From Dehalococcoidia bacterium (lineage in GTDB: Bacteria > Chloroflexota > Dehalococcoidia > Plut-88900): a stretch of 64,000 nucleotides of DNA. This document shows, piece by piece, positions 57,023-61,416 of the stretch. Under the pieces are notes generated by a model that saw only the letters and a list, made by a program, of their open reading frames with translations, was not told where the DNA came from and searched no databases. Within the stretch, counting starts at the first letter, position 1. Each line of letters begins with the position of its first letter. The translations under genes were made by a program, and so were the position numbers. Location of the stretch: assembly GCA_965249275.1 (NCBI GenBank), contig CBDFLQ010000006.1, forward strand, positions 864,001 through 928,000, given 5' to 3'.

Positions 57023-58411
57023 CTACCCCCTCGCCGCCAGCCTCACCATCAAATAAGCCATATCCCTGTCCCCCTTGATCGAATTGCACGCCGCGCAAAG
57101 CAACTGAAGGTTCTCCAGGTGGTCCGTCCCTCCCTTGGCCCGAGGCACCACGTGATCAATCGTCAGGTTGTGGATTGGGAACAGAATCTTGCACCCGGCA
57201 CAGTTCCCCGCCTGCTGGCCGAACAGCACGTGCTTCTGCTTCCGGTACGGGATCGGAGCCTCGATATCCATGCGCCGAGGTATATCCGTCCGGGCCGTGA
57301 CGTAGCCGTGGTGAAAGAGGCTGCCCATGGCCTGCTGCAACCGCATGTTCACCAGTTCGACCGCTTTCGGAGAGACGTCTATCCCCACCCACTTCCTCCC
57401 CAACATCTCCGCCGCGACGCACGCGGTTGCACACCCGCAGAACGGGTCCAGAACCATGTCACCGGGATTAGAAGACGCCGAGATAATCCGTTCCAGCAGC
57501 GCAAGTGGCTTTTGAGTCGGGTAGCCAGTTCGCTCTTTTGCGTGGGCTTGGACAGGCTTGATGTCCGTCCACTGATCCTGCAAGGGAACGCCTGGCATTT
57601 CATCGAGATAGCGTTTATACCTAGGGACCGCTCCCGGCTTGCTCTGAACTATGCGACCCTCTTTGGCCAGTTTAGCCATCTGTTCTTGGCTATACCTCCA
57701 GTATCGTATGACCCCAAGTAATTCATAGTGGGGATTTCCTTTAGCGTCACCACCTGGCCCTGTTAAATCGCCAAGTGTGTATCTTCTGCCCGTTTCCGGC
57801 TCTATGTGACGATAGAAGCGGTCTACATAGTCTTGGTCGTATTCCGTATAGATTGGGTTCCACGTCCAACTGTCTCCCTTGGAGTAGAAGAGTAGGGAGT
57901 CACGTATGCGCCCGTGCTGGCGTCGGCCTTGCTTGGTGTCGCTGTGGGCGCTACTCCGCTTCCAAGATATATCGCTGCGGAAGTTGCCTGCCCCGAATAC
58001 CGAGTCCATCAACATCTTGAGATAGTGCCCCGCCGTCGGGTCGCAATGCAGGTAGATAGAGCCGGTGCCCTTCAGCACCCGCCGCATCTCAACCAGCCGC
58101 ACCGCCATCATACACAGGTAGGACTGCATCCCCTTCCCGTGCGTCAGCCCCGCCGCCTCTATCAGCTTGTACATCGCCGGTTGCTCGTCGGCAATCAACC
58201 CCATCCACGCAACATCCAACTCTGAAAGCGTCCACGTGTCCTTAAACGCCGCCCCTGCCGCCCGTGACCCGACCGGTGCGGCATAGTTCCGGTTGGAATT
58301 GAACGGCGGATCGAGATATATCAGGTCCACCGACTCGGAGTTCAACCCCCTCAAAATATCCAGGTTGTCCCCCGTCCAAATCGTCTTGTCTACAAAATTA
58401 GCTTCAGCCAT
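57023..58411 (-). CDS. N6A/N4C DNA methyltransferase (beta class) fused to a C-terminal HNH endonuclease domain
   Basis: IYLDPPF (motif IV), YPTQKP, LDPFCGC (motif I); C-terminal CAGC...IDHVVPRAKGGTDHLENLQLLCAACNSIK. Confidence 0.9.
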   Translation of the reverse strand: MAEANFVDKTIWTGDNLDILRGLNSESVDLIYLDPPFNSNRNYAAPVGSRAAGAAFKDTWTLSELDVAWMGLIADEQPAMYKLIEAAGLTHGKGMQSYLCMMAVRLVEMRRVLKGTGSIYLHCDPTAGHYLKMLMDSVFGAGNFRSDISWKRSSAHSDTKQGRRQHGRIRDSLLFYSKGDSWTWNPIYTEYDQDYVDRFYRHIEPETGRRYTLGDLTGPGGDAKGNPHYELLGVIRYWRYSQEQMAKLAKEGRIVQSKPGAVPRYKRYLDEMPGVPLQDQWTDIKPVQAHAKERTGYPTQKPLALLERIISASSNPGDMVLDPFCGCATACVAAEMLGRKWVGIDVSPKAVELVNMRLQQAMGSLFHHGYVTARTDIPRRMDIEAPIPYRKQKHVLFGQQAGNCAGCKILFPIHNLTIDHVVPRAKGGTDHLENLQLLCAACNSIKGDRDMAYLMVRLAARG

Positions 58412-58578
58412 GCCGCTAGTGTAGATTAACTGTCAACTTCCCCTCCCCCTTGGTAACGACATATCAGCCATGTTGCAGAGCAACATGGCTGATATGTCAA
58501 TAAAACAGGGCGGGGGGGGCGGGACTCAATATATCCCTGAGGGTGGTGAGACATACCTCCAAAAGTGACACGAACCCC

Positions 58579-58608
58579 TTGACCAAACTTGTACACTTGT
58601 ACTATATT
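58579..58608 (+). promoter_or_regulatory. Sigma70-like promoter pointing into the non-coding structured region
   Basis: TTGACC-N18-TATATT; the spacer contains a tandem ACTTGTAC x2 (58587-58602). Confidence 0.6.
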
Positions 58609-58797
58609 CACCTCCGATAGGCCAATCACTCACCCTAAACCCAAAGGAGGTACCAAAAACTAGGGAAGCCCACCCGACCCACCCGAGGACTCAACGCCCC
58701 AGCCCATCCCAACGGCCCTCGCGCAGACCCGCGGCACAAGCGAAAGTCGCCATCTCCTCATCCCCACCGGGTCCCGTGCCCCCTTCCCTGTCCCCCA

Positions 58798-59281
58798 GGC
58801 GATGGAAAGACGCCCTGGTTCGCTTATGTTCCATGTGAACCCCCTCTAAGACGCCCTCAGCCTCTTACAGGGAAACCCTCCCTCGGGAGGAACACGCTCT
58901 TTCGAGCGGAATAGCGGTCGGATAGACCCGGCGCTGAGGTCCTCTCGGTACACCGTCCGCTTAATGAAGCCGGGAGCCGGTGGTCTACGCGCTCCTGGTC
59001 GCACCGGCAAACTCGGACACACTACGCCTGCAGAGGCCCGGCGTCGGACGCTGGACGAGCCTCCTTGCCGCCCTATAGCGGTGCAGCCAACCCTCGGAGT
59101 CGGACTCGGACCTGCTGGCCCTGAAGGTCCCTGCCCATGTCCGGCGTATACAGGGCCACAGGCCGCAGCAGCGGCAGGCGGCGGTAGTCCGCCCCAGTCG
59201 GGCCGGCGTCCTTCCCCCAGCGCGTCGGAACACCCGAACCACAGGAACGGGGGCAGCGTCCAGCAAGCGTCTTCCATCGCC
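58798..59281 (+). ncRNA. Candidate large structured non-coding RNA (~484 nt, unassigned)
   Basis: 15-bp closing stem (58798-58813/59267-59281), two nested domains, more than 10 hairpins, G-U pairs on the + strand, upstream promoter, no credible ORF. Confidence 0.6.
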
Positions 59282-59472
59282 AACCCACCCCAAACAAACA
59301 GAACACACCGAAACCCCACCACCCATAACTGAATAACCCCCCTCCCCCGGCATAACGCCTTTGCGTAACTGTCATTCCCGAGAAATCAGAGTCCGGAAAC
59401 GGTGTGAAGTGTGGGATGTTCCAGTTGTGACCAAACCCTGCGTGTGGTAGCATACTGCCCCGTCGCACGACC

Positions 59473-60444
59473 ATGATACTTACCGCCGTAGGCGCCTATC
59501 CGAAAATCACTGAAGGGCCCGAGGGACAGAGGCTCCGTAGAGCCATAGCCCGCTCCGATAGAGGAGACATCACCCCCGAAGACCTCGCCCGGGTTGAGGA
59601 CGACGTCACACGGGAGGTCATCGAACAGCAGGTTGCCGCAGGCCTCGACATGGTCACCGACGGCATGATTCGCTGGGACGATGGGCAGACATACATCGCC
59701 CGTAACCTGGAAGGCTTCGAGGCAACGGGCCTCCTGCGCTACTTCGACACCAACACCTATTACCGCCAGCCTGTAGCCACGGGCCCCATCAGCTGGAAGG
59801 GCCCCATCACCGTATCTGACTACCGGTTCGCCGCGGGCTGCACTTCGCTGCAGGTCAAGGCGATTATCACCGGCCCCTATACCCTGGCCAAGCTCTCCCG
59901 CTCCGACCACCACCGGGACCTCACTCACCTCGCTACGGATCTGGCCGACGCCCTCAGGCAGGAAGCCCTTGCCCTGGAAAGCGAGGGCGTGCCCCTTCTC
60001 CAGGTAGACGAGCCTGCCATTGTCAGGAACAAAGAGGACTGGGCACTCTTCCGTGAGGTGATGGACCGCTTCACCCAGGGTTTGAACGTAGAGCGGATGT
60101 TGTACACCTGGTTTGGTGACGTCACCGGGCTGGATGGCTTTTTTGATCTTCCCTTCCACGGCTTCGGCCTGGACTTCGTCAAGGGCCCGGCCAACTTTGA
60201 CCTGCTGGACCGGTTCCCCGCAGACAAGACCCTGGGCCTCGGCATCCTGGACGCCCGCAACGTCCGCCTGGAAACGGTCGAGCATATTTCGAATACTCTT
60301 ACGGAGACCTCGCGGCGGGTGTCTCTGGCCCGCATTCACCTGACCCCCAGCTGCGGGCTCGACTACCTGCCCCGGGACACGGCAATAGCTAAGCTGAGGC
60401 GCATGTCTGAGGGCGCAGCGGCGCTGAAGGAGGCGGTAAGTTAG
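59473..60444 (+). CDS. Split cobalamin-independent methionine synthase, N-terminal-like half
   Basis: VGAYPK, TDGMIRWDD, YFDTNTYYRQP, ITGPYTL, LQVDEP, TPSCGL; lacks the HxC zinc motif. Confidence 0.85.
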   Translation: MILTAVGAYPKITEGPEGQRLRRAIARSDRGDITPEDLARVEDDVTREVIEQQVAAGLDMVTDGMIRWDDGQTYIARNLEGFEATGLLRYFDTNTYYRQPVATGPISWKGPITVSDYRFAAGCTSLQVKAIITGPYTLAKLSRSDHHRDLTHLATDLADALRQEALALESEGVPLLQVDEPAIVRNKEDWALFREVMDRFTQGLNVERMLYTWFGDVTGLDGFFDLPFHGFGLDFVKGPANFDLLDRFPADKTLGLGILDARNVRLETVEHISNTLTETSRRVSLARIHLTPSCGLDYLPRDTAIAKLRRMSEGAAALKEAVS

Positions 60445-61416
60445 ATGGGAGCCTTGTTGACGACCTCCGTAGGAAGCTTCCCCAAGCCTCCTTACCTGAG
60501 AAAGGCCAGGGGACGCTACTCCCGCGGCGAGATGGACCGGCAGGAGCTCCGGGAGCTGGAGTTGCAGGCAACCCGCGAGTGGATCGAGGCCCAGGAGGAG
60601 ATCGGCATCGACATCCTTGTCGACGGGGAGATGGACCGTGGCGACATGGTCACTTATTTCGCCGAGAACCTGGACGGGTTCGCAATCAGCGGCCTGGTCC
60701 GCTCCTACGGCAACCGCTACTACCGCAAGCCAATTGCCACCGGCCCCATTAAAAGGCGTCAGCCCGTCACCCTTGACACCTGGAAATACGCCCAGAGCCT
60801 CACCGAAAAGCCGGTCAAAGGCATGCTCACCGGCCCTTATACCATCTGCGACTGGTCTTTCGACGAGTACTTCCCCAACCGTGAAGCCTTCATTATGAAC
60901 GTGGCTGAGTTTGTGCGAGACGAGGCCCGGGACCTGGAAGCCGCCGGCGCCACCTATATTCAGATCGACGAGCCCGCCCTCTCTACCCGCCCGGAGGAGA
61001 TCGACGTCGCCATCCGGGCCATGGGCGTCGTCACCGAGGGCCTCACCGCCACGACCATTACCCATATTTGCTACGGTGATTTCGCCAAAATATATCCCCG
61101 GATGCTGGATATGCCCGTAGACATCTTCGACCTGGAGATGGCCAACAGCGGCTACCAGCTCATGGATGTGTTCGCCTCCCACCCCTTCAGAAAGATGTTG
61201 TCCGCCGGCGTCGTCGACGTGCACAGCCACCAGATAGAACCCCCCGAAGAGGTTGCCGAAGGTGTGCGCCGGGTCCTGACCCAGTTCTCCCTCGACCAGA
61301 TCCTCGCCGACCCCGACTGCGGGCTCAAGACCCGAACGGTGGAAGAGGCCAAGGCCAAGCTGAAGGCCGTCAGGATGGGAGTGGACCTCGTCAAAGAGCA
61401 GCTGGGCGTCGCCTAG
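60445..61416 (+). CDS. metE: Split cobalamin-independent methionine synthase, catalytic C-terminal half
   Basis: TTSVGSFP, VDGEMDRGDMVTYF, VRSYG, KGMLTGP, IQIDEPA, HICYG, PDCGLKTR zinc ligands. Confidence 0.9.
   Translation: MGALLTTSVGSFPKPPYLRKARGRYSRGEMDRQELRELELQATREWIEAQEEIGIDILVDGEMDRGDMVTYFAENLDGFAISGLVRSYGNRYYRKPIATGPIKRRQPVTLDTWKYAQSLTEKPVKGMLTGPYTICDWSFDEYFPNREAFIMNVAEFVRDEARDLEAAGATYIQIDEPALSTRPEEIDVAIRAMGVVTEGLTATTITHICYGDFAKIYPRMLDMPVDIFDLEMANSGYQLMDVFASHPFRKMLSAGVVDVHSHQIEPPEEVAEGVRRVLTQFSLDQILADPDCGLKTRTVEEAKAKLKAVRMGVDLVKEQLGVA

Follow-up and report, generated by a model that had tools for sequence, protein, structure and literature searches.

The stretch of DNA considered here, hereafter the window, comprises 64,000 nucleotides from an uncultured genus of Dehalococcoidia (contig CBDFLQ010000006.1 of assembly GCA_965249275.1, positions 864,001 to 928,000), and towards its right-hand end an intergenic region of complex structure separates two sets of genes. 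To the left, at 57023-58411 on the minus strand, lies a gene for an N6/N4 DNA methylase fused to an HNH nuclease (MTase-HNH), and to the right two tandem plus-strand genes of 323 amino acids each (59473-60444 and 60445-61416) carry cobalamin-independent methionine synthase domains and are 77-95% identical in five relatives. A first-pass annotation had described the region between them as a single unassigned structured RNA gene with its own promoter. The present comparisons suggest instead that 58556-59336, perhaps from 58437 onwards, is one copy of a non-autonomous, genus-restricted mobile DNA element that contains no protein gene and carries as its cargo a promoter-driven transcription unit of ~0.7 kb for a structured RNA, a reading to which we would give a probability of about two in three. 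The comparisons draw on the window organism's own assembly (G000; 2.9 Mb, 87% complete), on related genomes of the genus (G001-G005) and on loci from relatives (designated by L-numbers such as L021, L031 and L061). The parts of the window copy are listed in Table 1.

Table 1. Parts of the element copy in the window; helices are predicted from sequence.
Feature	Position	Strand	Remarks
Long palindromic repeat, 19-bp perfect stem	58437..58543		Separate repeat upstream of the promoter in the window's 5' variant
Promoter module	58565..58608	+	GTGACAC 58565-58571; -35 TTGACC 58579-58584; 18-nt spacer; -10 TATATT 58603-58608
C/A-rich conserved leader	58615..58797	+	Variable ~30 nt first, then AAGGAGG 58644-58650 with no start codon behind it
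Leader hairpin, variable stem	about 58716-58740	+	
Invariant leader block CGCCATCTCCTC	58748-58759	+	
Clamp helix P1, 5' arm, with extension P1a	58798..58818	+	P1 arm 58798-58813; P1a CTGG 58815-58818
Type-A body, multi-helix fold	58798..59281	+	484 nt here, 420-486 nt in relatives
Core common to types A, C, D and G	58953..59094	+	Contains helices Hz, Ha and Hb, CGGCAAAC and UACGCCUGC
Core helix Hz	58976-82/59002-08	+	
Core helix Ha	59033-37/59059-63	+	Loop CUGGAC
Core helix Hb	59067-71/59078-82	+	Single-stranded CAGCCAA at 59084-59090
Pseudoknot hairpin GGACC/GGTCC	59108..59158	+	Loop TGGCCCTG 59116-23 pairing with CAGGGCCA 59151-58
P1a 3' side and P1 3' arm	59260..59281	+	CCAG 59260-63; P1 arm 59267-59281
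C/A-rich, G-poor tail ending CATAACTGAATAA	59282..59336	+	Terminator hairpin not found behind the tail

The region is a repeat. At least 54 copies of a unit of ~0.75-0.9 kb are present in the 2.9 Mb of G000: a search of this genome with window positions 58640-59340 gave 57 matches, and BLAST with the leader and with the tail gave 64 and 31 matches, respectively, from which 54 units were extracted. Each unit runs in the order promoter, ~30 variable nt, AAGGAGG, C/A-rich leader, clamp arm GGCGATGGAAG, body, arm CTTCCATCGCC and C/A-rich tail, the leader, clamp helix and tail being constant parts around an exchangeable body of 310-542 nt. The leader is represented by about 54 copies that are 74-95% identical, and the variable ~30 nt at its start group into a small number of lineages rather than being unique to each copy. 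The bodies are of at least 10 types, with clusters A (10 copies, that of the window included), B (13), C (10), D (6), E (5), F (3), G (2) and five singletons. The notion of a single RNA gene at a unique locus does not survive these numbers. Some leaders contain, and some tails are followed by, a mini-repeat of ~22-45 nt resembling GGAACATCCGCCTCTGGAGGAC, in one to three units (C6_148368p, C7_805008m, C6_293818p, C7_586013m, C7_236073p and C7_556561m; also L031:4830-4890).

The family appears to be confined to the genus, with the proviso that the counts derive from samples of the class and phylum and are to be read as "not found" rather than "absent". Many DNA-search matches were obtained in all eight other genomes of the genus, none in three other genera of the family, and a single weak one (E 9.6e-4) in 29 further genomes of the class. 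A covariance model built on the core common to body types A, C, D and G (R1), which scores 139.2 bits in the window, recovered 30 core copies in G000 and detected the core in three of the four genomes sampled from the genus; none of the 147 other genomes in the class sample and none of the 150 in the phylum sample gave a match. Viral contigs searched for the leader motif gave 0 matches.

The promoter proposed earlier, TTGACC-N18-TATATT at 58579-58608, is borne out, as it is the lone promoter-like site in a scan of 58350-59500 in which 0.3 would be expected; the same scan found no terminator-like site. In the family, TTGAC-N16-18-TAnnnT recurs at the same position in 51 of 54 copies, with a spacer of variable sequence and a GTGACAY word in front of it; a minus-strand occurrence was seen in one of the 54. 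AAGGAGG is present in 53 of the 54, at 29-36 nt past the -10 box in all but one (111 nt), and transcription would, from these positions, start near 58615. The description of the flanks as C/A-rich is likewise upheld, G making up 19% of the leader and 6% of the tail in the window copy; in units of types A and B the tail finishes with a word resembling CACAAYNNA.

An extended form of the promoter module, GTGACAY-N5-9-TTGAH-N17-20-TAnnnT, occurs at 65 sites in G000, of which 46 precede an element of the present family, 9 a second repeat family and 10 something else, among these last one directly before a tRNA gene (C5:117381) and others before likely protein genes. GTGACAY itself may be the binding site of a factor, or else a UP-like element of the genus. 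The second family (C5:156945, C5:272098, C5:477201, C5:735580, C6:141657, C6:841637, C6:946494, C7:453337 and C7:724391) has a different conserved leader with GGAGTCCCATGAGTCGC, possibly a Shine-Dalgarno (SD) sequence plus ATG, and its copy at C6:141657 continues into clamp and body. The palindrome in front of the window promoter also stands alone at C6:57319, C6:128599, C6:222157 and C5:507393, is joined to the leader in four other G000 copies and is kept with it at the orthologous loci of G002, G005 and G003; at relaxed E it gave weak chance matches to microRNA models of Rfam.

Transcription was approached through the assembled contigs of two metatranscriptome runs. Contigs of run X20 cover 58730-59176 and not 59328-59915, so that the flanking gene is uncovered while the body is covered, and run X19 provides a 649-nt contig that starts in a leader and runs into another body type, 58824-59243 being uncovered in that run. 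This cover is a weak hint of expression of the element, from which neither the presence nor the absence of a transcript follows. From promoter conservation and these contigs we infer transcription of the plus strand from the element's own promoter, the strand being assigned by the promoter because wobble pairs and consensus folding, discussed below, give none.

The large multi-domain fold that had been proposed together with the promoter also stood up to examination. When the fold energy of the window copy was compared with that of shuffles on each strand, the plus strand reached -233 kcal/mol (z = -4.05) and was equalled by none of 100 shuffles. The long stem GGCGATGGAAAGACGC (58798-58813)/GCGTCTTCCATCGCC (59267-59281) is present and paired as described, as are the hairpin 58817-58841 and the hairpin GGACC/GGTCC at 59108-59112/59126-59130, and the loop TGGCCCTG (59116-59123) is indeed complementary to CAGGGCCA (59151-59158), a pairing kept with differing sequences in four body types. 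Other helices of that earlier model fared less well. GACGCC/GGCGTC and CTCAGC/GCTGAG use a ~40-nt insert that, by our reading of the alignment, fewer than half of 40 family-A bodies contain, and in L120-L127, which do have it, the partner GGCGTC is missing; GCCTCC/GGGGGC conflicts with the covarying helix GAGGC 59033-37/GCCTC 59059-63; and the closing arm CGTCCAGC of the second domain exists as a sequence but lies at 59258-59265, one base from where it had been placed.

Comparison among copies provides the stronger evidence for the fold. The 14 pairs of clamp helix P1 are formed in 99.3% of cells across 39 distinct family-A bodies, and the clamp arm GGCGATGGAAG is kept in every body type while the inner stem is GACGC/GCGTC or GGTCC/GGACC, both arms having changed. 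In the extension P1a the pairing is CUGG/CCAG for types A and C, and UUGG/CCAA for type G and for L113. The core is made up of CGGCAAAC, UAC(G/U)CCUG, helix Ha with a CUGGAY loop, helix Hb, single-stranded ACAGCCAACC, GGAGYC and the loop-pairing hairpin. Across types Ha is formed by GAGGC/GCCUC, GGGG/CCCC or GGGGCC/GGCCCC and Hb by GCCGC/GCGGU, CUGC/GCAG or UGCC/GGCA, and the pseudoknot, aligned by eye, is formed by GGCCCUG/CAGGGCC in type A, GUAUG/CAUAC in C, UGCCCU/AGGGCA in D and GCCCC/GGGGC in G; within type A it is paired in 88.5% of cells, with two of its eight pairs changing on both sides. In a cross-type core alignment of 45 sequences and 19 pairs (A5), 12 of the 19 pairs show changes on both sides, in 102 cells against 42.1 +/- 5.9 in shuffles (0 of 500 as high), and the covariation score is 0.314 against at most 0.134 in a control with slid partners. 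For type A alone (40 bodies and 43 pairs of our own structure, with shuffles and slid-partner controls), pairing is seen in 95% of cells, compared with 30-48% for slid partners, and 6 of the 43 pairs are double-changed against 2.2 +/- 0.9. To judge from these alignments the fold is real, three helices and a pseudoknot keeping their pairing in four body types of different sequence.

A short word adds to the individuality of type A. The sevenfold occurrence of TCGGA noted previously is confirmed, 0.48 being expected in 2000 shuffles of the window body (sites at 58918, 59013, 59044, 59094, 59100, 59106 and 59225), and the ten type-A bodies together contain 43 instances, ~4 per body, and none of the complement TCCGA; among body types the excess is confined to type A and is strand-specific. 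In the RNA, UCGGA may be a word for protein binding or for a tertiary contact. A CsrA sponge of the CsrB/RsmZ type was considered and rejected, as no CsrA (PF02599) was found in G000 and GGA shows no general excess over TCC (530 vs 627 over 49 bodies; in type A alone CGGA stands at 77 vs 20).

No known RNA family accounts for the unit. In agreement with the first-pass annotation, Rfam 15 gave no match at gathering score in the 64-kb window, nor in 72 kb from 12 loci whose bodies are of other types, and with E up to 10 the interval 58400-59480 gave chance-level matches, the best in the body being Chloroflexi-1 on the minus strand (18.3 bits vs 80, E 0.82). A full-text literature search, within the portions of articles it covers, found no description of this repeat or RNA family. 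The combination of a promoter and a large predicted fold with an exchangeable middle in a gene-less mobile element therefore appears to match no described RNA family.

That the unit is mobile follows from a screen in which 79 relatives' loci were compared against G000. Two filled-versus-empty sites emerged, each with a duplication of ~3 bp: L031 contains an 874-bp insert where G000 is uninterrupted (C7:435882-435884; 3-nt overlap AAT), and L061 contains a 2077-bp insert at an otherwise empty site, with TGC duplicated. Both inserts open with TGATCCCGTTCACATAGAGGGGTGACA and close with GTGTCACTAA..CGAACGAGTACAC, and the ends TGATCCCGTTCACATAGAGGGGTGACA and GTGTCACTAAYCTNNCGAACGAGTACAC have TG.., CGTTC, ATAG and GTGACA in inverted order, being about 60% alike by eye. 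Since the inserted block includes the promoter, the element moves in the form of DNA. The left-end (LE) word has 23 matches in G000, about 18 of them at element copies by our reading, and its pairs with the right end (RE), matched by eye in that genome, are 0.74-1.2 kb apart; in the 79 loci eight of nine such pairs are 763-871 bp apart, and the ninth, at 2075 bp, contains a nested insertion sequence (IS) with ends of its own. None of the G000 copies contains an open reading frame. The earlier proposal had named many copies with target duplications as the mark of a transposable repeat with the 15-bp stem as its terminal repeats; both the copies and, at two sites, the ~3-bp duplications were found, and the terminal repeats would instead be the outer, putative imperfect ones, since the clamp lies 300 nt inside the left end.

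Two insertion sequences found near the elements were considered as sources of the mobility and rejected. The first, of ~1.3 kb, encodes a 423-aa transposase with an rve domain and distant IS481/IS3 matches below cut-offs (L061:3345-4640; L149-L160). Within the L061 insert it has its own ~35-bp inverted ends, and it is absent from G000, G003 and G004, which still have many elements; 11 intact copies are found in G005 and one each in G002 and G001. In 12 of 12 cases its insertion point separates GTGACAY..CCCC from the TTGAC -35 box and its orientation is divergent from the promoter, so that it appears to target this promoter, and the leader and clamp of the RNA element follow in 9 of the 12. The second, of 1056-1071 bp with a 329-aa rve transposase and ends TGTAAGTGTTAGGTAATTCGTTGACAG, is present in 12 copies of 90-99.8% identity (e.g. 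C7:999567-1000637), none of them in the window. It differs in its ends and inserts into another palindrome (GTCATTCC...GGAATGAC), several copies adjoining RNA elements.

Orthologous loci show how the unit changes in place. The metE-like gene downstream of the window copy is 87-95% identical in G002, G005, G003 and G001, where it is preceded by the palindrome and/or leader, ~69-82% identical, and then by bodies other than type A; G004 has no element at this position. The loci L021 and L025/L026 show the same pattern of differing bodies, and within G000 promoter variants and body types are mixed in mosaic fashion. The simplest cause would be an exchange of bodies by recombination between the constant flanks. 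The MTase-HNH gene, for which a link with the RNA had been suggested, does not follow this pattern: in five of five related genomes it lies elsewhere and not beside the orthologous loci, and the partnership is accordingly rejected. One to several full or partial copies of it elsewhere in the relatives make it look mobile itself.

Several observations weigh against the view of the element as the carrier of a functional RNA. The minus-strand fold of the window copy also departs from shuffles, if less strongly (z = -2.2), and consensus folding is about as good on the minus strand for all types; the G-U pairs, said previously to work on the plus strand alone, give across the family, for helices predicted on both strands, 18 G-U cells on the plus strand against 30 A-C cells. 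As the minus strand also folds, hairpins acting in DNA are conceivable. Covariation inside type A is modest, the A5 alignment was fitted to the model, and kinship among the sequences inflates the shuffle tests. Conservation is mixed, orthologous pairs with the same body being 81.6-98.2% identical and neighbouring coding sequence 92.3-95.7%, for eight non-independent pairs. The expression data are contigs only, to which carried-over DNA may have contributed and in which a repeat with 10 copies is covered more through its number alone. As for mobility, two insertion polymorphisms were seen in 79 loci, both of the LE/RE end type, and no parent IS or transposase with matching ends was found in G000 or in the 79 loci, the relatives' whole genomes lying outside the scan for LE/RE pairs. 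The window copy is of the other 5' variant, with the palindrome in front and no LE/RE ends, so that its own mobility is deduced from family membership; the duplications were seen at other loci, and at the window locus the sole element-free genome, G004, is too diverged to compare.

Much of this would be expected of an ordinary miniature inverted-repeat transposable element (MITE), in which case the unit would be selfish DNA, its stems would act in DNA as transposase sites or single-strand hairpins or would have arisen by chance, and any RNA would be functionless. Copy number, putative imperfect terminal repeats, the ~3-bp duplication, the lack of an open reading frame and the restriction to one genus all suit such an element, as do wobble pairs without strand preference, a consensus fold equal on both strands and the mixed conservation relative to neighbouring genes. 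Correia, ERIC and REPIN/BIME-type repeats likewise form many intergenic copies without an open reading frame in a narrow taxon, MITEs have imperfect terminal inverted repeats and a short target duplication, and some MITE-type bacterial repeats carry promoters or RNase III sites. However, a MITE needs only its ends, whereas in this family 51 of 54 copies retain the promoter hexamers around a drifting spacer, 53 of 54 have AAGGAGG at a set distance, internal helices and a pseudoknot stay paired in four body types of unrelated sequence, TCGGA is strand-specific (43 vs 0), and the clamp lies well inside the left end and is not a terminal repeat. Further, usual MITEs are well below the 0.75-0.9 kb of this element, which differs from them also in its internal conserved promoter with a 180-nt leader, its body types (at least 10) with covarying helices, the exchange of bodies at fixed loci, and the want of a parent IS with the same ends in G000 and the 79 loci. 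We therefore regard a plain MITE as unlikely.

It is somewhat less probable still that the unit is a mobile promoter with a long 5' leader that drives or regulates the downstream gene, the body acting in cis, for example as a Rho-dependent attenuator or a sensor. By codon-usage gene calls, 50 of the 54 units lie outside called genes and the next gene is co-oriented in 42 of 53 copies (two-sided binomial p ~2e-5 by our own arithmetic); the previous gene is divergent in 37 of 53, and both relations hold in 31 of 53. No terminator was found behind the tail, both the leader and the tail are poor in G and rich in C, a property of Rho loading (rut) sites, and the same promoter module stands before a tRNA gene and protein genes. 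Against this, a conserved promoter-like stretch belonging to the metE-like gene itself lies downstream of the element and ahead of the start codon, in element-free G004 as well, so that the element is not needed for expression of this gene. In addition, the bodies differ at one locus between species, which would be odd for a gene-specific regulator, and 11 of the 53 copies face the other way.

A further alternative, and a decidedly doubtful one, is a partnership of the RNA with a protein whose gene lies elsewhere, the RNA being a guide or scaffold of a nuclease or recombinase that moves the element, in the manner of omega, HEARO or bridge RNAs, or else a ribozyme that processes the transcript. 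A large, conserved, pseudoknotted RNA on a mobile element, with a constant scaffold of leader, clamp and tail around variable parts, would fit such a role, and HEARO-type families were reportedly orphans before their protein was found. The omega RNAs of TnpB/IscB (HEARO, RF02033) and the bridge RNA of IS110 are also structured RNAs of mobile elements, there of 150-400 nt, and may likewise exist in many orphan copies. However, the TnpB-type zinc ribbon domain PF07282 was not found in the 87%-complete G000, whereas 8 of 14 control genomes were positive (IscB was not searched with a model of its own), and neither was a reverse transcriptase (PF00078); the HEARO/omega analogy drawn in the first-pass annotation thus loses its footing, and an omega RNA or retroelement is rejected. 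Rfam gave no match to HEARO, group I or II introns or small ribozymes, no protein gene regularly adjoins the copies in G000, the HNH neighbour is not syntenic, and the variable 30 nt at the start of the leader sort into several lineages and are not copy-specific. The present element also has its own promoter, and to our knowledge the omega, HEARO and bridge families make no terminal repeats with a target duplication, as it appears to do.

Finally, a protein-coding family with a conserved N-terminal leader and a variable core, to which the conserved 5' part and variable middle, the likeness of AAGGAGG to a ribosome binding site and open reading frames of 122-158 aa overlapping the body might point, is rejected, because no ATG, GTG or TTG stands at the usual distance behind AAGGAGG, the leader has no open frame with a start codon and has stops in all three plus frames, non-triplet indels, including single-base ones, separate close copies in leader and body, and the two longest frames overlapping the body have no Pfam match.

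Returning to the element as a mobile carrier of a structured RNA, bacterial RNAs comparable to it in size and complexity are OLE, GOLLD, ROOL and raiA, which are also multi-domain RNAs of 400-800 nt with pseudoknots and a function that is not known, GOLLD and ROOL being often found on mobile DNA. However, those RNAs are widespread and present in one or few copies, whereas the present one reaches some 54 or more copies per genome in one genus and is a cassette between constant flanks that is itself the mobile unit. The STAB-SD stabilisers of Bacillus mRNAs also place an SD-like box near the 5' end without a start codon, but the AAGGAGG here may instead pair with the UCUCCUC block at 58753-58759. 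The clamp recalls the leader-trailer helices of pre-rRNA (PMC11404451), in which flanking sequences form a long helix that closes off a structured RNA; by comparison the present clamp of 15 + 4 bp is invariant across unrelated bodies, and a role in processing is putative.

Taken together, these data allow a model for the working of the element. It would be transcribed on the plus strand from its own promoter, and the 15-bp clamp would join both ends of the body in the way that leader and trailer are joined around ribosomal RNA, either marking the body for release by a double-strand RNase or protecting it. AAGGAGG, close to the 5' end and not followed by a start codon, could serve as a stabiliser or as the partner of the UCUCCUC block. 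At the G-poor tail transcription may end in a Rho-dependent manner or may run on, and run-on past the tail would explain why the surviving copies are mostly co-oriented with the next gene. Recombination between the constant flanks would then exchange the bodies. Our preferred guess is that the element yields this RNA as a functional product in its own right, either a scaffold or a catalyst serving element or host, rather than as a by-product. A more speculative extension, offered tentatively and by analogy, is that the family represents a new class of RNA-centred mobile element, comparable to HEARO before IscB was understood, in which the pseudoknotted RNA would be a ribozyme or the RNA subunit of an unrecognised protein machine that moves the element, swaps its bodies or benefits the host (e.g. 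in defence), the body types being functional variants of one scaffold.

The locus carries a warning for annotation, in that a convincing single-locus RNA candidate may turn out to be a repeat, and a repeat may still contain a real fold. The family offers dozens of natural paralogues for covariation-based structure work and a natural cassette design of constant flanks and an exchangeable fold. By estimate the elements occupy ~1.3-1.5% of the genome (54 units of 0.7-0.8 kb in 2.9 Mb), which raises the question of why a genome of small size maintains around 60 promoters that fire into non-coding RNA. Should the RNA be functional, the genus would possess a class of large structured RNA that is spread by a gene-less transposon as its cargo and gains diversity through replacement of its middle part.

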